Made by a program: the position numbers and the translations under genes. From Christensenellaceae bacterium (GTDB lineage Bacteria > Bacillota > Clostridia > Christensenellales > Borkfalkiaceae): 34,623 bases of DNA. Of this stretch, positions 5,087 through 23,106 are shown piece by piece. The DNA lies in the NCBI GenBank assembly GCA_045653965.1, contig JAZOMM010000065.1, positions 1-34,623 of the forward strand, in the 5' to 3' direction. Below the pieces are notes generated by a model that worked only from the letters and a program-made list of their open reading frames with translations, searched no databases and had not been told where the DNA came from. The stretch's first letter is position 1, and each line of letters starts with the position of its first letter.

Positions 5087-5929
5087 ATGAGCAATATTAT
5101 TCAAGCAATTTACAACATTTATCATTGCCCTGTTTATAAGACAGGAGAACATTACTATGTAAAAAACAGAGCCAACAATATGGGCGATGCATTAGAGCAT
5201 TTTATAAAAGACTCTTTTGCTAACTCTTATGGTCTTGACGAAGCTGATGCTATGAGAGCGCATTCCGAGACATTTGCTTATCTTGGAAATCAGAACAATC
5301 CCCCTGATGCTATATTGCGTGGTGGTGATGCTATCGAAGTCAAGAAAATAGAATCTCCTACTTCGGCATTAGCATTGAACAGCTCTTATCCCAAAGCAAA
5401 AATTTACCGTGACAGCACTATGCTTACTACAGCTTGTAAATCTTGTGATGGTGGCACTTGGGATGAAAAGGATTTAATTTTCGCAGTAGGAGTTGTTAAT
5501 AACGAAGAAATCAAACAGCTTTGCTTTGTGTATGGTGAAGACTATGCAGCCAGCCGTGAAATATATGAGAGGATACGCACGCAAATTAAGAATGGTGTCC
5601 TTGAAATTCCCGACATCGAATTTGCGGAAACCAACGAACTTGGCAGAGTGAATCATGTCGATCCTCTCGGAATTACATATTTGAGATTGCGTGGAATGTG
5701 GCACATTGAAAATCCGTTCCGAGTTTTCAGATATGCATACGAGTTTGATAATACAAAGTCGTTCAATTTTCTTGCTATTATCAATTTTGAAAAATATGAA
5801 TCTTTCCCGAAAGCTGATAGGATTTTAATTGAACACGAAATCGGGATTGATATAAAGTTCAGAGAAATAAGAGACCCCAACAATCCTGCTATGATGAAAA
5901 AAGTAGTAGTAATCACATTTGCGAGGTAA
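5087..5929 (+). CDS. type II restriction endonuclease, NgoPII-like (predicted GGCC)
   Basis: 280-aa ORF with an AGGAG RBS, immediately upstream of a HaeIII/NgoPII-like C5 methyltransferase. Length and blocks such as [21 protein letters not shown] and [20 protein letters not shown] fit my recollection of the R.NgoPII family. Not verified by search. Confidence 0.6.
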
Positions 5930-5936
5930 CAAAGAT

Positions 5937-6914
5937 TTGAAAGTTGTAAGTTTATTTTCCGGGGCAGGTGGCATGGACTTGGGCTTTGAAAAAGCCGGGT
6001 TTAAAATCGTTTTTGCCAATGAGTTCGACAAAACAATATGGGCAACATACGAAAGAAATCATACTGCTCCGCTTGACAGAAGAGATATTCGTCTTATTCC
6101 TTCCGAAGAAATCCCTGAATGCGACGGCATTATCGGTGGACCTCCTTGCCAAAGCTGGAGCGAGGCCGGGGCTTTGCGTGGTATAAATGACGAGCGAGGA
6201 AAGTTGTTTTATGAGTACATTCGCATTTTGAAGGACAAGCAACCGAAGTTTTTTGTTGCAGAAAATGTTTCGGGTATGCTTGCCGATATGCATCGTGAAG
6301 CGGTTCAAAATATAATCCAAAGCTTTGAAAACGCGGGATATAACATATCTGTCACACTTGTAAATGCGGTGGATTATGGCGTTCCGCAGGATAGAAAAAG
6401 AGTTTTTTATGTGGGTATACGCAAAGATTTGAATATGCGATTTACTTTCCCCGAACCTCAAAAAAGAAAGTACACATTATACGATGCCATTTGGGATTTA
6501 AGAGAAACCGCAATCCCTGCATTAAAATCCAACAAAACGAATGGAGAAAATTGTAAATTCCTCAATCATGAATATATGATAGGTGGCTTTTCCACTATCT
6601 ATATGTCACGTAATCGTGTTCGCTCATGGGACGAGCCTTCCTTTACCATTCAAGCGGGAGGTCGTCATGCCCCTATACACCCACAAGCTCCTAAAATGGT
6701 GTTTATAGAAAAGAACAAACGAGAATTTGTAAAAGGTAAAGAGGATTTGTATCGCAGATTGAGTGTTAGAGAATGTGCAAGGATTCAAACATTCCCCGAT
6801 ACCTTTGAATTTGTGTATACAGATGTTGCCGATGCATACAAAATGATTGGCAATGCCGTGCCTGTAAACTTGGCGTTTGCTGTGGCAAATAAAATACAAC
6901 AAATTCTGATATGA
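5937..6914 (+). CDS. DNA (cytosine-5)-methyltransferase, HaeIII/NgoPII-like (predicted GGCC specificity)
   Basis: Canonical m5C motifs are present: FSGAGG (I), GGPPCQSWS (IV), ENV (VI), QDRKR (VIII), GNAVP (X). It is close to M.HaeIII through the variable/TRD region (NHEY.IG..STI.MSRNRVR.W.EP.FT.QA.GR....HPQAP). The track ORF starts at TTG 5919. TTG 5937 has a GAGGT RBS 9 nt upstream and matches the M.HaeIII N-terminus better. Confidence 0.9.
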
Positions 6915-7227: not shown

Positions 7228-7968
7228 ATGATAGTTAAAGTTTTGGTGAATATGTTTGTAATAAAAAGAAAAAATATAATTATAGTTTGCGTGCTTATAA
7301 TAACATTTTTGACATTTATAATGTGTTTTGGTGCAATAAAAATTAATCCTGTTGGTCGAGCATACGCTAACAAAATTAAAATAGTTTTAGATGCTGGTCA
7401 TGGTGGAATTGATGGTGGCGTAAGTGGGGTAAGAACAGGTATAAAAGAAAGTGAACTCAACTTAAAAGTTGTTAAAAAACTTGAAAAAATTCTAGTTGAT
7501 GCAGGTATGGCTGTTGTTTTAACAAGAAATTCTGAAGCAGGTTTATATGGCGTTGCAAATAGCAGTTTAAAGCGCAAAGATATGGAAAAAAGAAGGGATA
7601 TAATTAAAAAGGTTAAGCCAACGCTTGTAATAAGCATTCATATGAATCAATATACTCTCTCAACACGCCGTGGCGCACAAGCCTTTTATAATAAAGATAA
7701 CGAAAATAGTAAATTACTTGCAGAGTGCGTTCAACAAAGTTTTAACGAAATGACAGAGGCTGTTAGACAAAGTTCAGCACTTGAAGGTGATTATTACATA
7801 GTAAAATGCAGTGAATACCCAACAATTATTGCAGAGTGTGGTTTTTTATCAAACCCTGATGATGAAGCACTTTTAATTAGCGACAAATATCAAGAAAGCC
7901 TTGCATATAATATTTTTAAGGGAATTTCATTGTATTTAGCCCAAACAACATTTATATATAATCAATAA
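7228..7968 (+). CDS. cwlD: N-acetylmuramoyl-L-alanine amidase, CwlD-like (Amidase_3)
   Basis: An N-terminal TM helix is followed by LDAGHGGIDGG, a KRKDMEKRRDII block, SIHMN and ECGFLSNPDDE. This layout is collinear with B. subtilis CwlD. Confidence 0.75.
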   Translation: MIVKVLVNMFVIKRKNIIIVCVLIITFLTFIMCFGAIKINPVGRAYANKIKIVLDAGHGGIDGGVSGVRTGIKESELNLKVVKKLEKILVDAGMAVVLTRNSEAGLYGVANSSLKRKDMEKRRDIIKKVKPTLVISIHMNQYTLSTRRGAQAFYNKDNENSKLLAECVQQSFNEMTEAVRQSSALEGDYYIVKCSEYPTIIAECGFLSNPDDEALLISDKYQESLAYNIFKGISLYLAQTTFIYNQ

Positions 7969-7975
7969 TTATTTA

Positions 7976-8033
7976 GCCCGAATGTAAAAATTCGGGCTTT
8001 CCTATTGTATTTTTGAGAAAAGTATTGTATAAT
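7976..8033 (+). repeat. 58-nt terminator+promoter module, copy 1 (left boundary of three-gene cassette)
   Basis: It has the hairpin gcccgaat-gtaaaa-attcgggc plus a T-rich tail, then TTGTAT-17nt-TATAAT. 52/58 nt are identical, ungapped, to 12193-12250. Confidence 0.85.
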
Positions 8034-8076
8034 TAATGTAAAATATTAACAAAAAAAGGCTCGTTAAGGGGTGTTT

Positions 8077-9204
8077 ATGGAACTTATATCTCATAACAAA
8101 TTTGACTTATCAAAGCATTGTGGTCATATTGTGCTTTTATATGTGGACACTATGGAGGGCAAAGTTACAAAAATAAAAGAAGCATTGGAGATGGCTGGCT
8201 TTGTATATTATAGTTATCCAGTTTCAATTATAGGTAAAAATACATCATATGATGCAAGTGAAATTTTTGATAATTGCTCTTGCTTGATAAGTGTTTTTTC
8301 AGAAGAGTTTTTCAAAGAAGAAAATGAGTTTGTTAAAAACCAGTTTTTTTATCATATAGGTTATGTTTGTGGTTTAAATAAAAATTCCGTTTTACCATTT
8401 TGCTTAGAAAAATCGCACAATATTACTTTGGAAAGAACTCCACTGCAAAAATTAGACTTCATAACAACTATTGAAGGCTTGTTTGATGCCTTAAATTCAA
8501 GATTTTCAAGCAAAATTTTAAGATATAATTTTTATAGTAATTATATGGTTAATAAATATGCTACTTCTAGAATTTTTTATAGGTGTTTACATTTAAAGTT
8601 TAAGATTTATAACACAGCCTTTCAAAATGCTAAAATTTATTATGAAGATTTTTTCTCGAGAGCCATTTCGGACAATGCTTTTGACGAAATTTTATCTGAA
8701 AATTTAATATGTGGTTGTAAAATCATTAGTTTTGGTAATGACAGGCACCTAACTCCACAAATGCTTCCTTATAAAGATGAAGTTTATGCTAGAGTTGATG
8801 ATTATCCACAAATAATATCAGGAAAGAAAGCTTATACTTTGCTTTCAAAAGAAAATCAAGAAAAAACAGGTGTTAGGGCAGAATTAACAATGGATATATT
8901 GATGCCTATCCATAAACTTTTAGGCTCTTACTTCAAATGTTTTATTACAAGTAAACAAGAAAAATATCCTGTTTATTTACTTTTGTCGCTGTTTGAAGGT
9001 GACTTTATTGATGAGCAACCAGAGTTTAGGGATAATGTGCTAGAAAGTGTTGAATATTGGAAAAGCATATACCCAAAAGAAACATTTATAGATGAAGAAA
9101 ATAGCCGTTTCTACTTTGGTATAGGTTTAACAAGCAATAATGAAATAGAAGTAGATGAGTCTCTTAAAATAGGCGACTCTTTAGATTATATGTTCCCACA
9201 ATAA
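8077..9204 (+). CDS. degenerate TIR-like protein, full-length paralog of the downstream gene
   Basis: The track ORF starts at GTG 8071. ATG 8077 has an AAGGGG RBS 5 nt upstream. There are three collinear blocks shared with the next protein. In the first, CLISVFS..FFYHIGYVCG aligns with AVVILTK..WVNYEMGYLRG. In the second, ILMPIHKLLGSYFKCFI aligns with NLPVHKIYGTEFKFII. The third is a C-terminal ENSRFYF / ENRIYL block. The position of the TIR catalytic Glu is His (codon 8353-8355). Confidence 0.55.
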   Translation: MELISHNKFDLSKHCGHIVLLYVDTMEGKVTKIKEALEMAGFVYYSYPVSIIGKNTSYDASEIFDNCSCLISVFSEEFFKEENEFVKNQFFYHIGYVCGLNKNSVLPFCLEKSHNITLERTPLQKLDFITTIEGLFDALNSRFSSKILRYNFYSNYMVNKYATSRIFYRCLHLKFKIYNTAFQNAKIYYEDFFSRAISDNAFDEILSENLICGCKIISFGNDRHLTPQMLPYKDEVYARVDDYPQIISGKKAYTLLSKENQEKTGVRAELTMDILMPIHKLLGSYFKCFITSKQEKYPVYLLLSLFEGDFIDEQPEFRDNVLESVEYWKSIYPKETFIDEENSRFYFGIGLTSNNEIEVDESLKIGDSLDYMFPQ

Positions 9205-9222
9205 GAAAAAGGAATAAATAAA

Positions 9223-10368
9223 ATGTTGAATTTACAAGAGAAAATATTGGGTGATTTTGATTTTTATACCCGACTTCCAAATGAAGATGAGAAAAAGTTT
9301 TATGGAATATTTATTTCGCACTCTAATTTTGACCAAAGCGAAAAGGATTTGCTAAATTATGTGCAAAACGAAATGGTTAGTAAGGGGCTTTATGTTTTAT
9401 GCGATAAAGACTTTATTAGAGGTGGAGACGATTATCAAAATAGGATTGAAAACGCCTTAGATTGTTATGCAGCCGTAGTTATTTTAACAAAAAACTCAAT
9501 TAAATCTGATTGGGTTAATTACGAAATGGGTTATCTTAGGGGAAAAGGCAAAACTATTTATGTTTGGGATACGGAAAATTTATTTTTAAAAGAAAACAGA
9601 GAGAAAAATCCTTCGCTAAATCTTCTATATTACACTCATTATAAAAAATATGGAAATATTTATAACAAGATAGATGATATTATAGAAGAAATTTCTAAAC
9701 ACTCTCAGTATTCGCAAATGTTCAGTAACGAATCGGCATTTTTAACTAGAGCAGAATTTAATCAAAGGCTTAATGAAAATGCAGTTTCAGTTATAGCAAC
9801 TTTGTCAAGTTCAATTTTCGATAAACATTACAACTTGTTTAAGGATTGTAAATTTGGGCTATTAACTATGAATTTTGGTATGTTTTATAGTGGGCATGGT
9901 GATGGATGTCAATGCTACAGTAAAAGAAACAGTCCAATAGAAAACAAAACTTGCCCTATTAGTCAAAGTGAGTGTGCTTTGGTGCAAAAGACAGAAGTAA
10001 CCGATGTAAATAAGGAGTGTGTTTTATTAAATAGTTTAGTTTATAGTGGGGTATTAAAAAAGGCTGGAACACTTGATAGGCTTGGAAATGTTATAGAGTG
10101 TGGTGCGATAGAATATAATCTTCCTGTTCATAAAATATATGGCACCGAATTTAAGTTTATAATAGATGTTCCTAACGATGACTATTTTATTAGAATGCTT
10201 AATATATTAAACGAAGCAGGCATGAATGCAACTAAGTCAATTTCAAACATTGAAAATAGAATTTATTTATCTTTGCCTGAAAGAAGAGGTCAAGGACTTT
10301 ATAGATTAGACCATGAATTCTCAAATAATTTTATATGTCCTTATGCAATAAGAAAAAAATTTAGATAG
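9223..10368 (+). CDS. TIR-domain protein with about 260-aa C-terminal domain of unknown function
   Basis: The N-terminus YGIFISHSNFDQ..LYVLCDKDFIRGGDDYQNRIENALDCYAAVVILTKNSIKSDWVNYEMGY follows the bacterial TIR pattern (FISH/S start, G..I...I, hydrophobic strand, S.W...E). The putative catalytic Glu101 is codon 9523-9525. The C-terminal part has a Cys cluster (GCQC...C...C). Confidence 0.75.
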   Translation: MLNLQEKILGDFDFYTRLPNEDEKKFYGIFISHSNFDQSEKDLLNYVQNEMVSKGLYVLCDKDFIRGGDDYQNRIENALDCYAAVVILTKNSIKSDWVNYEMGYLRGKGKTIYVWDTENLFLKENREKNPSLNLLYYTHYKKYGNIYNKIDDIIEEISKHSQYSQMFSNESAFLTRAEFNQRLNENAVSVIATLSSSIFDKHYNLFKDCKFGLLTMNFGMFYSGHGDGCQCYSKRNSPIENKTCPISQSECALVQKTEVTDVNKECVLLNSLVYSGVLKKAGTLDRLGNVIECGAIEYNLPVHKIYGTEFKFIIDVPNDDYFIRMLNILNEAGMNATKSISNIENRIYLSLPERRGQGLYRLDHEFSNNFICPYAIRKKFR

Positions 10369-10378
10369 GAGTCTAACT

Positions 10379-12166
10379 ATGTGGGAAATTTGCCTTAATT
10401 TGTCAATATCTATTGCTTTAATAGTTTTAATGTTGATAGCCGTGCTTAGTTTTACCAAAATTGCTGCTAAGAAAGGTTTTAATTTAAATTATCTATTTAT
10501 AATTGGCTTTTTTATAGTTGGATTTATTCTTTTCTTGCCAATTTTCAATTTTGATAAAAAAGACGATAGTTTATCAATTTTTCAAACTATAGTATTATCT
10601 TGCATGAATGCATTAAAACTTTTTGTTTCTGGCTGTGAATATGGTGATATATCTGGAATTATTAGTTTAGCACCACAAAATATTGCTTTTATTTATCAGG
10701 TTTGGTTTTTATTGCTTTTTATTTTTACTCCTATTTACACTATAGGATTTATACTTTCCTTTTTTAAGAATATTAGGGCAAGAATACAATATTTGGCAAA
10801 TTGGAATAAAGATGTTTATATTTTTTCATCATTAAACGAAAAGTCGTTTAACCTAGCAAAAGATATAAAAGCAAACAATAAAAAAGCATTAGTTGTTTTC
10901 GTGGGGATTAACGGCAAAGAAGAAAAACAAAATCCATATATTTTTGAATTGCAGGCAATAGGCTGTATTTTCTTTTATAAAAACTTATTTTCTATTGGTT
11001 TTTCAAAGCATTCTCAAAAAAGAAACATCACTTTCTTTACTATAGATAATGATGAAAACAAAAACCTAAAAGAAGGCTTGAAAATAATTGATAATTATAA
11101 AGATAGAGAAAATGTTAATCTTTACATTTTTTCAACACAAATTGACAGCGCGTTACTTCTTGCAAGTGCGAATAAAGGTAAAATTAATGTTAGAAGAATA
11201 AACGAAGTTCAGTCTTTAATAAGTAGCCATATTTATGAAAATGGTAATATTTTGTTTAAAAATGCAATTGAAAATAAGGGCGGAGACAAAGAGATTTCGG
11301 CGTTAATAGTTGGGCTTGGTAAATATGGAACAGAAATGCTTAAAACATTATCGTGGTATTGTCAAATGGATGGATATCATGTAACTATTAATGCATTTGA
11401 TAAGGATAAAAAGGCATTAGAGAAGTTAAAAGGTGTTGCACCAGAACTTTTAAGTGAAAAATTTAATGGAGCAAAAATTGATGGGGAGGCACAATATAAA
11501 ATAAATGTATATTCTGGCATTGATGTCAAGGAATATACTTTTAACGATATAATCGAAAAAATTAAAGATGTTTCTTATGTTTTTGTTTGTTTAGGTGAAG
11601 ATAATTTAAATATAGAAACTGCCATAGAATTAAGAAGTTTATTCGAAAGAATTCATGTTCACCCAATTATTCAAACTATAGTTAATAACACGTTGCAGAA
11701 GAAATCGCTACAAAACTTAAAAAATTATAGTGGTCAAGATTACGATATAGATTATATTGGTGATATAGAATCCATTTACTGCCAAAAAGTTATAATCAAT
11801 TCCGAACTTGAACAAAAAGCCTTAAAGCAACATTTAAAATGGGGAAAAGAAGAAGAGTTTTGGAATTATGAATATAATTATCGCTCATCATTAGCCACAA
11901 CAATGCACCTAAAAGCAAGGATTTTGTGCGGAATAAAAGGTGCAAATAAAAAGACTAATCAATTATCTGGCGAAGAAAAAGTTATAATTGAAAAACTTGA
12001 GCATAGAAGATGGAACGCCTATATGCGAAGCGAAGGCTATATTTATAGTGGAAGTTTAGATGAAAAAAGCAGAAATAATTTAGCCAAAACACACCATAAT
12101 TTAGTGCCTTATGATTTGCTAAGCAAGGAAGATAAGAAAAAAGACAGTGATATAGGAACTGTGTAA
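10379..12166 (+). CDS. multi-pass membrane protein with cytoplasmic Rossmann-like (GxGxxG) domains and C-terminal RyR-repeat-like motif
   Basis: The first roughly 135 aa contain about 4-5 TM helices. IVGLGKYG (about nt 11309-11329), followed by ...HVTINAFDKD, fits a dinucleotide-binding beta-alpha-beta fold. The C-terminus LEHRRWNAYMRSEGYIYSG...KTHHNLVPYDLLSKEDKKKD matches the RyR-domain pattern H.RW......GW.YG....K.HP.LVPY..L.E.EK..D. An AGGAG RBS overlaps the upstream stop. Confidence 0.65.
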   Translation: MWEICLNLSISIALIVLMLIAVLSFTKIAAKKGFNLNYLFIIGFFIVGFILFLPIFNFDKKDDSLSIFQTIVLSCMNALKLFVSGCEYGDISGIISLAPQNIAFIYQVWFLLLFIFTPIYTIGFILSFFKNIRARIQYLANWNKDVYIFSSLNEKSFNLAKDIKANNKKALVVFVGINGKEEKQNPYIFELQAIGCIFFYKNLFSIGFSKHSQKRNITFFTIDNDENKNLKEGLKIIDNYKDRENVNLYIFSTQIDSALLLASANKGKINVRRINEVQSLISSHIYENGNILFKNAIENKGGDKEISALIVGLGKYGTEMLKTLSWYCQMDGYHVTINAFDKDKKALEKLKGVAPELLSEKFNGAKIDGEAQYKINVYSGIDVKEYTFNDIIEKIKDVSYVFVCLGEDNLNIETAIELRSLFERIHVHPIIQTIVNNTLQKKSLQNLKNYSGQDYDIDYIGDIESIYCQKVIINSELEQKALKQHLKWGKEEEFWNYEYNYRSSLATTMHLKARILCGIKGANKKTNQLSGEEKVIIEKLEHRRWNAYMRSEGYIYSGSLDEKSRNNLAKTHHNLVPYDLLSKEDKKKDSDIGTV

Positions 12167-12192
12167 AAGAGAGTTTATAAATAAAATGTATT

Positions 12193-12250
12193 GCCCGAAT
12201 GTAAAAATTCGGGCTTTTTTATTGTGTTTTTGCCAAAAATATTGTATAAT
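12193..12250 (+). repeat. 58-nt terminator+promoter module, copy 2 (right boundary of three-gene cassette)
   Basis: The same hairpin gcccgaat-gtaaaa-attcgggc plus TTTTTT is present, then TTGTGT-17nt-TATAAT. 52/58 nt are identical to 7976-8033. Confidence 0.85.
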
Positions 12251-12279
12251 GATTATAAATACAATTTGGAGTTGTGGAA

Positions 12280-19977: not shown

Positions 19978-22900
19978 TTAGTCGTTTTCAGTTTTGTCTT
20001 CTTCTTTTTCTTCTTCACCAAAGACTTGAACATCACCATAAACATAAGAATCTAAAGATTGTTCATCGTTATTTCCTTCATCATTTGTTGGTTCGTCAAT
20101 ATTAACATCGATATCAATATCAACTTCTTCAACCTTAGATTTTGTAGATGGTTTTTTTGTTCTGCTTCTTACAGTGTAGTGTGATTTTGCATCACTCTTG
20201 TTTGCTTTGCGTCTTTGTCTAAAGTTTTTAATGAATAGCATTATAATTGCAACGACAAGTGCAACACCAATTATGATTGAAGACAATGATAACCAGAAGG
20301 CTGCAGGGTCTGTTTGAGTTGCAGATTCATCTGTGGTTACATCTTCATCAACGTTAGTTGCATATGGGTCAACTTCAGTTGGGTCAATAGTGTTATAGAT
20401 TGCATAAATCATTTTATATGTTTTTGCCCAAACATAATTAGATTTATATTCAATCTTCTTGCTATTTTCAGAATTATATTGTTTTTCAAGTGTTGTCAAC
20501 TCTCTTTGATAAGCAATTAAATCTAATTCATCTTCAATGTTACCAAATTGATTGTATAATGGTGATTCGCTTTCGCTGAAAGCATCTTGCCAACGAGAAT
20601 GTTCTTCAAAAGCACTTGAATCAACAATAGAAACTTCATCAAAGAATACATAGCCGTTTTGAGTTAAAGCAGTAGTATTGTCACGAGCACCGTTCCAAAG
20701 TTCAACTCTAAAATTCTTTTCAGTTGCACCTGTAGCAACATAGAATTCTACGGTTACCCAGCCATTATCATCTAACATTGATTCATCAATAGTAAGAACT
20801 AATTCTTTATCTTGAATAACTTCACCGAAGTTATCATATTCACCATCGCTAGTGTTTACTGTAAATGAATTGAGTTTCATAACATCTTTTTCAACATTTG
20901 ATGTGTCAACGATGTAAATATATGCTTCTGCGTTATAAACTCTAACTTTAACTGAAACTTTAGCATAAGAATTAACGTTAATGGTGTGGTTTTCGCTGAT
21001 GAAACCATAACTCTTTCCTTCAGTCTTAATCATAAGTGGCTGTATGCTTTCAGTATCATTATGGTTAAGAGCATCATCAACGTCTGATAGGTTAGGGTTT
21101 TGTGTATAGTTGTTCAAGTACTTGCTGTTAATTAAGCCAGCATAGTCATTATTGTTTGTTTTAATAATGTCTTGTTCGTTACCTGTGATGTAATAATGTC
21201 CAGATTCAATACCAGTATAAAATCTAGGATTTGCAGGATTGTCTAATATTTGACCAATACTACTTGTAGCAACTGTAAATGTGTATGAATCAGAAGATGT
21301 TGTTCCATCTGCAATGTAATCTTCATTAAATCCAGCGTAAAGTGCTGTTGAACCAGCAGATGTGTCAGATAACAACTTATAATATTGATAATTAGAGGTT
21401 TCTATTTCATTTATTTCATCTTGTTCTGTGGCATATTGATATGTTTTTCCAGAGCAAACGATAGGTGATGAAATTGTAACAGTGCCTAATGCATAGTTGT
21501 CTATATTAGCAGTGTATTCATCTGGGCCGATAACAATTTCTAAATTAAACTTACGAACTGTAGTATGTTTGTCTTCATCAAAGTTGTTTTTAACAGTTAT
21601 AGTATATTTTACCCATTCATCGCTAGTTTCAGAAATTGTTGCAACGGCTGGTCTTTCAACAGATTCATTGCCAAATATATCTTGTACATTAATAATAATG
21701 TTTGGAGAATAAAGTTTGCTTAAAGTGTTCTTTACAAAGAATGTGATTGTTGAATAACTTTCGCCAGATAACTCAAATGGAACGCCATTATTATCAAGTT
21801 TAATAGAATAACTTGCAGGTTTATTAAGTTTAACTTCAAGTCCATTTGCACTGCCATATGGTGTATCTAAACTATTTTTATGTGAAAGTGAAACTGATGC
21901 AGCATTATTAAAGTTACCGGTATAGTTACCACCTTTATATTGTGTAAATCCATAATAATCTTGGTCTGTTGTATCGTTATGGAAATTTGCAGTCGTTGAA
22001 TAACCAGAGATATTTGCTAGGTTAACAGACATATCGTAAAGATATAAGTTGTTATCAACATAGTCTGATGCTTTAACCATTGGCTTAGAATCTTTATTGT
22101 TATATGAAATTATGTTAATATTTGTGTTTGTGTAATTAGCAATGCTTGTTTGATATTCATCTTTATCTAACAATTCAACACAAATATCATCAAAATAAGC
22201 AGTACCTGTTGCAGCATAATTGTCGTTACCAATACTTAACTCAAGTGTAAATTTAGTTTCAAAAACAGAATCTGCTTTTACATAGAATACATATTGTTTC
22301 CATTCTGTGCTAGTTATGTTGTAAATACCATAATTAGATTGTTGACTTCCGTTAAAAGAGTTTTTAATAGAAATGTTTGCACCGATAGGTTCGCCATAAT
22401 GAGCAGTTGTTTTATCAGTATTTAAGTTTGCTGTCTTAACCCAAGCGCTAATTTTTGCATATTCGCCAAGATTTAACTTGATTTCTGTTGAAGATGAAAG
22501 TTTTTGCACGCAACCATAAGCATAATGATTTTTAAGGTAGTTGTTAAGCATGTATACTTTATTATCAATATCATTTGCGTGTGTGCCAGGATTTTTGAAA
22601 GCATACTTAACATCAGGGTTTGGTGTTTCTGGTATTAAAAAATAATTATCAATGATGTATTCTTTTATTTCATCAGAGGTGACAACTTTACTTGAGTTGC
22701 CATCTTTAATTATGTTTTTAATATCTTCTGTGTCAAAGTTGTTAAGATATTTAACGTATGACAAAATTCCATCATCTTTATATAAGTTTGACATAAGTTC
22801 GGTCCAACCATAGTCGGATACGTCAATTACACCAGACTTAGATGTTGCAACCTTAGTAAAAGACCAATCATCAACAGTTGTTTTTGGATAATCTGAATAC

Positions 22901-23106
22901 TTCATAGCCTGTGTGCCAAAAGTAAATGAAGGGTTTTTGATTTCACTATCACTTCTATCAGAATAAGAATATTCTGGTATAGTATCGGCTTCATCGTCTT
23001 TTTTACAAGCAGTTGCCATAAATAAAGATATGCACATCAACGTTGCAAGAATAAAAACAAGAAGTTTTTTAATTGTTAAAAATTTTGAGTTAGTTTTTCT
23101 CGTCAT
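19978..23106 (-). CDS. large cell-surface protein with lipoprotein-type signal peptide, three beta-sandwich (CBM-like) modules, C-terminal TM anchor and acidic tail
   Basis: The N-terminus LMCISLFMATAC is lipobox-like. Three divergent modules end in similar strands (EWKQYVFYVKA...LELSIGND...AYFDDICV; DEWVKYTITVKN...LEIVIGPD...; NGWVTVEFYVAT...VELWNGARD...VFFDEVSI). The C-terminus has the hydrophobic helix WLSLSSIIIGVALVVAIIMLFI followed by RQRRK and an Asp/Glu-rich tail. Confidence 0.7.
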   Translation of the reverse strand: MTRKTNSKFLTIKKLLVFILATLMCISLFMATACKKDDEADTIPEYSYSDRSDSEIKNPSFTFGTQAMKYSDYPKTTVDDWSFTKVATSKSGVIDVSDYGWTELMSNLYKDDGILSYVKYLNNFDTEDIKNIIKDGNSSKVVTSDEIKEYIIDNYFLIPETPNPDVKYAFKNPGTHANDIDNKVYMLNNYLKNHYAYGCVQKLSSSTEIKLNLGEYAKISAWVKTANLNTDKTTAHYGEPIGANISIKNSFNGSQQSNYGIYNITSTEWKQYVFYVKADSVFETKFTLELSIGNDNYAATGTAYFDDICVELLDKDEYQTSIANYTNTNINIISYNNKDSKPMVKASDYVDNNLYLYDMSVNLANISGYSTTANFHNDTTDQDYYGFTQYKGGNYTGNFNNAASVSLSHKNSLDTPYGSANGLEVKLNKPASYSIKLDNNGVPFELSGESYSTITFFVKNTLSKLYSPNIIINVQDIFGNESVERPAVATISETSDEWVKYTITVKNNFDEDKHTTVRKFNLEIVIGPDEYTANIDNYALGTVTISSPIVCSGKTYQYATEQDEINEIETSNYQYYKLLSDTSAGSTALYAGFNEDYIADGTTSSDSYTFTVATSSIGQILDNPANPRFYTGIESGHYYITGNEQDIIKTNNNDYAGLINSKYLNNYTQNPNLSDVDDALNHNDTESIQPLMIKTEGKSYGFISENHTINVNSYAKVSVKVRVYNAEAYIYIVDTSNVEKDVMKLNSFTVNTSDGEYDNFGEVIQDKELVLTIDESMLDDNGWVTVEFYVATGATEKNFRVELWNGARDNTTALTQNGYVFFDEVSIVDSSAFEEHSRWQDAFSESESPLYNQFGNIEDELDLIAYQRELTTLEKQYNSENSKKIEYKSNYVWAKTYKMIYAIYNTIDPTEVDPYATNVDEDVTTDESATQTDPAAFWLSLSSIIIGVALVVAIIMLFIKNFRQRRKANKSDAKSHYTVRSRTKKPSTKSKVEEVDIDIDVNIDEPTNDEGNNDEQSLDSYVYGDVQVFGEEEKEEDKTEND

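Follow-up and report, generated by a model that had tools for sequence, protein, structure and literature searches.

A three-gene TIR cassette of a Christensenellaceae bacterium encodes a membrane protein with tandem RCK-like domains and a RyR-like C-terminal segment

We analysed a 34,623-nucleotide (nt) stretch of DNA from a Christensenellaceae bacterium (assembly GCA_045653965.1, contig JAZOMM010000065.1, forward strand), referred to below as the window, and concentrated on a gene for a 595-amino-acid (aa) membrane protein that lies directly behind two TIR-type genes. The open reading frame (ORF) of this protein spans 10379-12166 on the + strand, from an ATG start to a TAA stop, and we consider the start codon right because M1-W2 is invariant among the homologs. 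An AGGAG ribosome-binding site is located 7 nt 5' of the ORF, where it shares nucleotides with the stop codon of the TIR gene before it. The three genes are separated by gaps of 18 nt (genes 1 and 2) and 10 nt (genes 2 and 3), so that the 595-aa gene follows closely, and in the same orientation, on a TIR gene whose catalytic Glu is intact. The 595-aa gene had been described earlier from its letters alone (the first-pass annotation). Two 76-nt direct repeats bracket exactly these three genes. The features of the cassette, with the basis of each assignment where it applies, are as follows (TM, transmembrane helix; RyR, ryanodine receptor).

7967 to 8042, + strand: left 76-nt direct repeat, with a terminator-like hairpin at 7976-7997 (GCCCGAATGTAAAAATTCGGGC and a T run), then an extended -10-like TATTGTATAAT
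8071 to 9204, + strand: gene 1, 377-aa degenerate TIR-like protein with a His ('FFYHIGY') at the catalytic Glu site and a C-terminal domain without assigned function (hhalign)
9223 to 10368, + strand: gene 2, ThsB-like protein of 381 aa whose TIR domain (aa 21-171) holds the catalytic Glu E101; C-terminal domain rich in Cys (Pfam, PADLOC)
10379 to 12166, + strand: gene 3, TM, tandem-RCK and RyR-like protein of 595 aa (ORF, homologs, AlphaFold2, Foldseek)
10379 to 10798, + strand: membrane region of gene 3, aa 1-140, with TM1 at 2-25, TM2 at 36-56, a weak helix at 64-83, an acidic loop with a short helix at 84-99 and TM4/linker at 100-140 (AlphaFold2, hydropathy, charge)
10814 to 11263, + strand: RCK-like Rossmann domain 1 (RCK1), aa 146-295, glycine motif degenerate ('VYIFSSLNEKS') (AlphaFold2, Foldseek, motif conservation)
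11288 to 11794, + strand: RCK-like Rossmann domain 2 (RCK2), aa 304-472, with G312xG314xxG317 (11312-11329) and D341 (11399-11401) (AlphaFold2, Foldseek, conservation, sub-threshold TrkA_N)
11804 to 11959, + strand: conserved helical linker, aa 476-527, including HLKWGKEEEFWNYEYNYRSS (conservation, AlphaFold2)
11960 to 12163, + strand: RyR-like segment, aa 528-595, with putative pocket residues H542, W545, R565, H572, K588 and D589 (hhalign, phmmer, conservation)
12184 to 12259, + strand: right 76-nt direct repeat, 83% identical to the left one, with a hairpin at 12193-12214, then TATTGTATAAT

The AlphaFold2 model of the 595-aa protein, built from 23 homologs, reached a mean predicted local distance difference test score (pLDDT) of 80 and a predicted template modelling score of 0.71. 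It consists of five helices in aa 2-140, a pair of Rossmann-type alpha/beta domains (aa 146-295 and aa 304-472), and a helical C-terminus at aa 476-595 that was modelled poorly past residue 555. AlphaFold2, Foldseek and hhalign together confirmed that the three-part architecture proposed before, a membrane region, tandem RCK-like domains and a RyR-like C-terminus, is real. Residue conservation was counted over 81 distinct homologs, and family-level Pfam scans covered 76 diverse family representatives.

The motif LEHRRW...KKKD of the C-terminus maps to 11996-12145 and had been said to follow the RyR consensus, which held in profile-profile comparison and at the level of the family, while the window protein itself stayed below the Pfam cut-off. 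Against the 27.4-bit threshold of Pfam RyR (PF02026), the score was 16.4 bits for the whole protein and 21.9 bits (E 2e-4) for its C-terminus alone. Within the family, 28 of the 76 representatives matched Pfam RyR at E<=0.01 (best 1.2e-8), and one member, P0235, passed the curated cut-off with 28.3 bits. Alignment by hhalign of the family C-terminus with standalone proteins encoded near some homologs, which match PF02026 at 1e-35, gave Prob 92.5-94.6% with E values of 4.9e-7 and 6.8e-8, and phmmer returned weak matches to the RyR1 repeat chimera 6uhi and to Bacteroides RyR-domain structures, including 3nrt. The possibility of a further, degenerate RyR repeat around H485-x-x-W488 (aa 468-533) was considered and found unsupported (hhalign E 0.15), and for the linker at aa 476-527 no homolog was detected, its hhalign comparison with RyR (E 0.15) not being significant.

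According to 2026 preprints, phage RyR-domain proteins bind TIR products and one of them also cleaves its ligand (PMC13232231; 10.64898/2026.06.04.730250). RyDEP contacts 3'cADPR, a cyclic ADP-ribose (cADPR) isomer, through H75, W78, H100 and D117, and it is a glycosidase with H75/D117 as its catalytic dyad (PMC13232231), while RyR Tad binds 3'cADPR, 2'cADPR and cADPR through H129/W132, K147/H154 and K170/D171 (10.64898/2026.06.04.730250); in both cases the pocket residues were established by mutagenesis (PMC13232231; 10.64898/2026.06.04.730250). The spacing H-3-W-22-H-17-D is common to RyDEP, RyR Tad and the B. thetaiotaomicron RyR protein. The window protein reads H542-3-W545-27-H572-17-D589, which amounts to a loop insertion of five residues, with R565 at the H-7 position and K588 directly before D589. 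These positions were kept almost throughout the 81 homologs: H542, W545, H572 and D589 in all 81, K588 in 78, and R565 in 78 with Lys in two more. We regard this conservation as the strongest single argument that the RyR-like domain may bind an adenine-ribose ligand of the ADP-ribose (ADPR) family. The earlier suggestion that the cytoplasmic domains read a TIR-made nucleotide thus becomes a hypothesis at residue level, because RyR-domain proteins bind cADPR isomers through the very residues kept here, and the likely nucleotide reader would be the RyR pocket rather than the Rossmann site of the RCK module.

Standalone RyR proteins from homolog loci (L004 11726-12007, L005 11787-12071, L019 12832-13122 and ten other loci) keep the His-x-x-Trp and Lys/Tyr-Asp elements, and a Thr ('KKTTPCLVPY') replaces the phosphate-contacting His found in RyDEP, RyR Tad, the B. 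thetaiotaomicron RyR protein and the 595-aa family. This replacement may reflect a different ligand or affinity.

For the middle of the protein, the first-pass annotation had described a degenerate Rossmann-like segment followed by an intact GLGKYG...D motif, and the motif was found as G312-L-G314-K-Y-G317 with D341 (11312-11401). Among the 81 homologs, G312 and G317 were present in 81, G314 in 80, and position 341 was Asp in 78 and Glu in three; the glycine motif was missing from RCK1 in the same set. The RCK2 GxGxxG...D element is a predicted dinucleotide-binding site. The check for an RCK match had a divided outcome: Pfam TrkA_N (PF02254) remained sub-threshold for the window protein (17.6 against 23.8 bits, E 0.005, aa 394-432 only), whereas tandem-RCK structures headed the Foldseek search of the PDB. 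The top eight matches there (E 5e-6 to 1.3e-3, probability 1.0) were all of this kind: TrkA 4j9v (5e-6) and 4g65, GsuK 4gx5 (4e-5) and CASTOR 6o7a and 6o6j (5e-5). TrkA_N was also matched at E<=0.01 by 15 of the 76 family representatives. Based on the tandem-RCK matches, the motif conservation and the TrkA_N matches in the family, it is correct to describe the protein as having two Rossmann domains of RCK type, the first degenerate and the second intact.

The presence of a membrane region, described before as 4-5 TM helices, was confirmed, but three TM helices with a re-entrant segment are likelier than a 4-5 TM bundle because only three helices are strongly hydrophobic and because of the loop charges seen across the family. 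AlphaFold2 and hydropathy placed helices at aa 2-25, 36-56, 64-83, 88-95 (short) and 100-140 (long), with the helix at 64-83 weakly hydrophobic. The family-wide net charge was +3.3 for loop 26-36 and +2.1 for segment 129-146, as against -0.8 for loop 57-63 and -2.3 for segment 84-99. By the positive-inside rule, loops 26-36 and 129-146 would lie inside and 57-63 and 84-99 outside. The N-terminus would then be outside; TM1 and TM2 would be followed by a helix that does not span the membrane, with the acidic loop at the outer surface, and TM4 would run into the cytoplasm. A TM-P-TM layout with an additional N-terminal helix would fit this charge topology. The weak helix 64-83, together with the acidic loop and the short helix at 84-99, is a candidate re-entrant pore loop in the model. 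It reads GCEYGD in the window protein; across the family only G/D-x-(E/D)-(F/Y) is conserved, and position 87 is acidic in 71 of the 81 homologs.

Of the two genes upstream, the second encodes the better-defined TIR protein. Its 381-aa product matched Pfam TIR_2 above the cut-off (E 6.7e-8) and PADLOC ThsB with E 6e-13, and in 21 homologs E101 was invariant and the cysteines were conserved. The family of this protein (TIR381) comprises about 111 clusters, whose Cys-rich C-terminal domains have no Pfam match. The 377-aa product of gene 1 gave no match in Pfam, while its homolog at locus L090 matched TIR_2 weakly. In hhalign, the 377-aa family aligned to the TIR381 family with Prob 87% and E 4e-6 over the N-terminal 117 columns. 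Close paralogy between the 377-aa protein and the TIR protein was rejected, as BLASTP shows almost nothing and the TIR-like N-terminus is seen by profile comparison only.

The hairpin of 22 nt is identical in both repeat copies and occurs exactly twice in the window, with 0 occurrences expected by chance. The TATTGTATAAT of the left repeat is likely the cassette promoter, the hairpin at 12193-12214 likely the cassette terminator, and the TATTGTATAAT of the right repeat likely the promoter of the mini-RNase III operon. Equivalent brackets were found at L001 (5586-5661 and 9806-9881) and L008 (2862-2932 and 7070-7140). The hairpin sequence differs between the genomes of the window, L001 and L008 but matches within each of them, which suggests gene conversion of one copy by the other, or repeated recombination that could also excise the cassette. 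In the window the three-gene set sits between an amidase gene and the mini-RNase III gene. The full set is also present at L099, with a 73% ortholog of the 595-aa protein, between a deaminase gene and the phosphoribosyl pyrophosphate (PRPP) synthetase gene; at L043 a 79% ortholog is encoded immediately 5' of PRPP synthetase, on a contig that begins inside the ortholog's own gene. Since the same set occupies a second chromosomal site in L099, the three cassette genes travel together. No direct repeats were found around the cassette at that second site. In a search for an empty site, with the amidase gene followed directly by mini-RNase III, exact look-ups of the window's mini-RNase III and SpoU proteins returned no record.

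Beside the cassette, window positions 5087-6914 encode a restriction enzyme of the NgoPII type (Pfam E 6e-107) together with a C5 cytosine methyltransferase (Pfam E 1e-105), which lie between the genes for a tRNA U5-methyltransferase and the amidase and are missing at the same place in L001. With a GC content of 0.38-0.41, against about 0.30 around it, this restriction-modification pair appears to be a separate recent insertion. Further along, window positions 19978-23106 (- strand) hold a 1,042-aa ORF near a gene for a WYL-domain regulator; its L001 ortholog has 1,044 aa, and no Pfam match was recorded for it.

Relatives of the 595-aa protein are numerous. A word-indexed search found 610, nearly all of 590-600 aa, in metagenome-assembled genomes (MAGs) of Clostridia from guts and rumens (Oscillospiraceae, Acutalibacteraceae, Faecousia, Christensenellaceae and Lachnospiraceae), and an exhaustive profile search returned 2,520 clusters at 50% identity with E<=1e-3, of which 1,092 had E<=1e-30. 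Among 185,579 species genomes, 342 stretches encode a relative. The distribution is patchy and of accessory type; some MAGs carry two copies, and paralog pairs within one operon also occur. The source records label the family 'hypothetical protein', apart from P0062, which carries the name 'urea transporter' in NCBI without support from its sequence. Carriage by phages or plasmids, which would have favoured an anti-defence role, was rejected: the family was not found in IMG/VR or PLSDB, and its sole INPHARED match was MT835673.1 (L098, 22 kb, 'UNVERIFIED: Bacteriophage sp.'). This record contains GyrB/ParE-type, MutY-type, HemN-type and histidine-kinase genes, none of its ten scanned ORFs had a phage-type Pfam match, and it looks like bacterial chromosomal DNA filed as viral. 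The family is chromosomal and host-encoded.

Gene neighbourhoods were compared over 81 non-redundant loci, of which the 62 with at least 8 kb of flank were taken as informative. TIR genes occurred within 10 kb in 18 of the 62, with a peak at position +1 and nearly all on the same strand. They made up 4.6% of the neighbours within four genes (23/496) and 1.2% of those further away (5/403; Fisher p 0.003), and the TIR association noticed in the window thereby extends, with a position-dependent enrichment, well beyond it. The homologs were not consistently placed in housekeeping transport operons, in line with the earlier reading, for which profile-level evidence of both RyR and RCK domains also exists. 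The TIR partners show at least eight architectures (TIR-NACHT/STAND-TPR, TIR-LRR, TIR-BspA-LRR, TIR-Sel1, TIR-TPR, TIR-kinase, TIR-TIR, TIR-FHA and a 110-aa mini TIR). Such a combination, in which the TIR domain and the adjacent membrane protein stay the same and the sensor-type repeats change, would be expected of signal makers with a common receiver. The other recurrent neighbours among the 62 loci, with their positions relative to the homolog, are listed below.

17 loci, position +1: IetA-like AAA+ protein (PADLOC 1e-46), about 1,160 aa long, in which two AAA+ domains are combined with an M41 peptidase
12 loci, positions +1/+2: full-length paralog of 660-950 aa, RyR motif kept
11 loci, positions +2/+3: standalone RyR protein of 93-100 aa
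11 loci, positions -2/-3: YbjN-like proteins
10 loci, position -1: CARF-PD(D/E)xK nuclease (PADLOC 2.5e-25)
6 loci, positions +3/+4: TerB-like protein

Distant homologs lie in a conserved, ordered operon (L019 2302-13583, L077 7720-14757, L005 4559-12423 and similar loci). Its order is two YbjN-like genes, the CARF-PD(D/E)xK nuclease, the TM-RCK-RyR protein and the AAA+-AAA+-M41 protease (about 1,160 aa), followed by a longer TM-RCK-RyR paralog, the standalone RyR protein and then a TerB-like or TIR protein. In the libraries and literature searched, no described system matched this multi-gene arrangement. Another recurrent arrangement, which directly adjoins the homolog on one side or the other, couples a TIR-BspA-LRR protein of about 546 aa with a CitMHS/ArsB-type transporter-like membrane protein of about 380 aa, at L072 (7204-9978), L076 (11773-14564) and L071 (8776-9972). 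It may be another pair of a TIR and a membrane protein.

From these observations we tentatively propose, at slightly under an even chance, that the cassette is a TIR-based, Thoeris-like conflict system of three genes in which the 595-aa protein serves as membrane effector and acts as a channel gated by a TIR-made signal. Of this reading, the analysis shows the domain identities, the pocket conservation, the operon packing, the mobility of the cassette and the neighbourhood statistics. During infection, the 381-aa TIR protein and its degenerate 377-aa partner would convert NAD+ to an ADP-ribose-derived signal, probably a cADPR isomer, that would bind the RyR-like pocket (H542/W545/R565/H572/K588/D589). 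Ligand binding would shift the conformation of the RCK ring, pull on the long TM4-linker helix and open a cation-conducting pore built from TM2, the re-entrant acidic loop and TM4, and the resulting ion leak or depolarisation would arrest the infected cell. An adenine (di)nucleotide, whether NAD(H), ATP or ADP, probably occupies the GxGxxG...D site of RCK2, and this nucleotide may be a second input that reports NAD+ or energy status. Which ligand binds, how gating works, the presence of a pore and the outcome for immunity are all inferred, and channel function in particular would follow by analogy from the RCK module, pore homology being undetectable. Of the ligand-gated channel or pore-like effector that the first-pass annotation had suggested, the architecture, the TIR linkage and the pocket have stood; channel or pore activity and dependence on these particular TIR genes are conjectural.

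Several results weigh against this reading. In the membrane region there is no K+-channel selectivity filter of the TVGYG type, and the candidate pore loop is only moderately conserved across the 81 homologs; Ion_trans_2 or related Pfam pore families gave no match even at E<=10; and Foldseek of the TM-only AlphaFold2 model (pLDDT 79) against the PDB returned nothing significant (best E 1.6). The best TM-scores of that search belonged to the K+ channels SthK and AKT1 (0.38-0.40, probability <0.2). K+-channel identity of the membrane region was accordingly rejected for want of a Pfam match at E<=10 and of a significant PDB structure, and only the analogy of topology was kept. At the other end of the protein, aa 528-595 align to RyR positions 13-78 of 93, with the last helix of the repeat missing, the protein stopping about 15-20 residues short of the repeat end, and the model of the RyR-like segment has low confidence, with pLDDT below 50 for aa 555-595. 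There is no PADLOC or NCBIfam model for the 595-aa protein, and an expression search found the sequence only in DNA metagenome runs, with a share of at most 0.11. The TIR pair also occurs on its own: metagenome contigs yielded seven TIR381 loci, mostly short, in place of which four distant loci were looked up individually, and in 4/4 of them the pair lacked the 595-aa protein (L087 4862-7143, L088 1877-4219, L089 4847-7137 and L090 4907-7200, at unrelated chromosomal sites). In this two-gene module the degenerate TIR protein has about 375-394 aa and the catalytic one about 380-399 aa. The trio is specific to a lineage, and the TIR pair may be self-sufficient. Furthermore, the repeat12 domain of animal RyR1 is reported to bind ATP (10.64898/2026.06.04.730250), and therefore the ligand of the 595-aa protein need not be TIR-made. 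Finally, no conflict-type neighbour was present in 25 of the 62 informative loci (about 40%), and at three loci (L021, homolog at 7848-9868; L030; L038), two of them from related Faecousia species, the homolog adjoins TrkH and TrkA/KtrA genes. This adjacency is the sole hint of a tie to ordinary K+ transport.

The last of these points lead to an unlikely alternative, that the protein is a physiological cation or K+ channel or a transport regulator, responding to ATP, ADP or NAD(H) through RCK2 and the RyR pocket, with no immune role and with the TIR genes beside it only because the region is variable. Regulation of K+ transport is the normal task of RCK domains, as the TrkH and TrkA/KtrA adjacencies recall, and the loci with ordinary neighbours only, the independent existence of the TIR pair, the ATP-binding RyR1 repeat12 (10.64898/2026.06.04.730250) and the great uniformity of the family in length and sequence would all suit such a protein. 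A housekeeping role sits poorly, however, with the patchy distribution, the MAGs with two copies and the paralog pairs within one operon. Nor does it account for the same-strand, position-dependent enrichment of genes for TIR proteins, CARF-nucleases and AAA+ proteases, or for three genes that move as one cassette between two chromosomal sites.

It is more unlikely still that the protein is a sensor or regulator rather than the effector, detecting a disturbance of membrane, ions or nucleotides and activating the TIR NADases, the AAA+/M41 protease or the CARF-nuclease. The 595-aa family is indeed the constant element, usually first in the operon core, while the partners with effector domains vary between TIR, protease and nuclease; and, according to one study, TIR-STAND/NACHT proteins are often NAD+-depleting effectors themselves (Yirmiya et al. 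2025, 10.64898/2025.12.03.692087). Yet the TIR partners vary in their sensor-type repeats (TPR, LRR, Sel1, FHA) around a constant TIR domain, which points to TIR as the signal maker; the strictly conserved RyR pocket corresponds to a known binding site for TIR products; and the CARF-nuclease itself receives signals.

That the RyR pocket acts as a sink, hydrolysing or sequestering cADPR-type signals at the membrane and so setting a threshold for TIR signalling or ending it to prevent autoimmunity, seems to us improbable. In its favour, the catalytic dyad H75/D117 of RyDEP (PMC13232231) has its counterparts in the invariant H542 and D589, the same operons repeatedly contain standalone RyR proteins, and sponge and hydrolase are the only RyR-domain activities so far demonstrated in bacteria-phage conflicts. 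A sink could, however, do without a conserved membrane region and without a tandem RCK module whose dinucleotide site is intact, and the sponge-type RyDEP homologs keep the same residues, so their conservation is no sign of catalysis (PMC13232231). Just as improbable is a signal-activated membrane disruptor that is no channel and causes non-specific damage by ligand-driven oligomerisation, like the TM effectors of type II Thoeris and CBASS/Pycsar: the membrane region is unlike any known pore and many nucleotide-activated defence effectors are simple TM proteins (Yirmiya et al. 2025, 10.64898/2025.12.03.692087), but many residues of this region are invariant, its topology is conserved throughout the family and, as in RCK channels, a long helix connects it to RCK1; tandem RCK modules, moreover, are known solely as gating rings.

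Returning to the proposed TIR-gated channel, the nearest parallels among defence systems are the Thoeris membrane effectors, namely type II ThsC (Macro-TM), type V ThsF (DUF2270) and type X ThsK ('ion channel'). The cassette resembles them in having a catalytic-Glu TIR gene directly 5' of a gene for a membrane protein with a cytoplasmic nucleotide-binding domain; unlike them, it has a RyR-like sensing domain, a tandem RCK transducer and two TIR-type genes, one of them degenerate. In the available part of a survey of 29 Thoeris effectors no RyR, TrkA or RCK effector appears (10.64898/2025.12.03.692087), and by its predicted domains the 595-aa protein would fall outside the described Thoeris effector families, with type X ThsK compared by description only. 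The effectors Cam1, Csx23, Cap14/15 and SAVED-TM of type III CRISPR and CBASS likewise combine a second-messenger-binding cytoplasmic domain with a growth-stopping membrane region, but their sensor folds are CARF or SAVED rather than RyR and RCK, and their signal makers differ too.

The pocket is homologous to that of the phage PF02026 proteins RyDEP and RyR Tad, with His-x-x-Trp, a basic residue, His and Lys-Asp kept. Those are small, soluble, dimeric anti-defence proteins that work as sponges or as a glycosidase, whereas the 595-aa protein is host-encoded, membrane-anchored and fused to RCK domains, lacks the last helix and has the five-residue loop insertion. With TrkA/TrkH, KtrAB, MthK, GsuK, BK and CASTOR it shares a tandem RCK module after the last membrane helix and a GxGxxG...D site; it differs from these RCK channels in having no recognisable K+ pore or filter and no TrkA_C-type lobes, in the lost RCK1 motif and in the added RyR-like domain. 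The R12 domain of the animal ryanodine receptor belongs to the same domain family, has the same ligand-contacting residues and is positioned on the cytosolic side of a large cation channel. The animal receptor, in contrast, has a tandem pair where the 595-aa protein has a single partial repeat, its channel body is unrelated, and it is about 10x larger.

cADPR, a product of TIR enzymes and CD38, has long been linked to RyR activation. A narrower version of our proposal, which we consider doubtful, is a bacterial cation channel gated by a cADPR-type signal, in which a RyR repeat is combined with an RCK gating ring and a TIR enzyme produces the ligand. Such a channel would parallel, in prokaryotes, the animal cADPR-ryanodine receptor axis and might even be where that axis came from. 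In the larger operons, the AAA+/M41 protease, the second, paralogous subunit and the RyR proteins that stand alone would be parts that tune or reset one pathway. The RyR repeat would then be an ancient receptor module for TIR products, and the small bacterial protein would offer a tractable model for direct action of cADPR-type molecules on the RyR repeat of a channel.

Binding of TIR-made cADPR isomers by RyR domains was shown first in 2026, for phage anti-defence proteins alone, and our literature search found no paper tying host RyR-domain membrane proteins to TIR systems. A large, unannotated host family that joins a RyR pocket, a channel-type gating module and a membrane region beside TIR genes points to a new host role for the RyR repeat. 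If the proposed reading is true, immunity by TIR signalling would gain a sensor domain and an effector class that are both new, and it would become clear what the phage RyR sponges mimic. The analysis already supplies a label for thousands of 'hypothetical proteins' in the Clostridia of gut and rumen.

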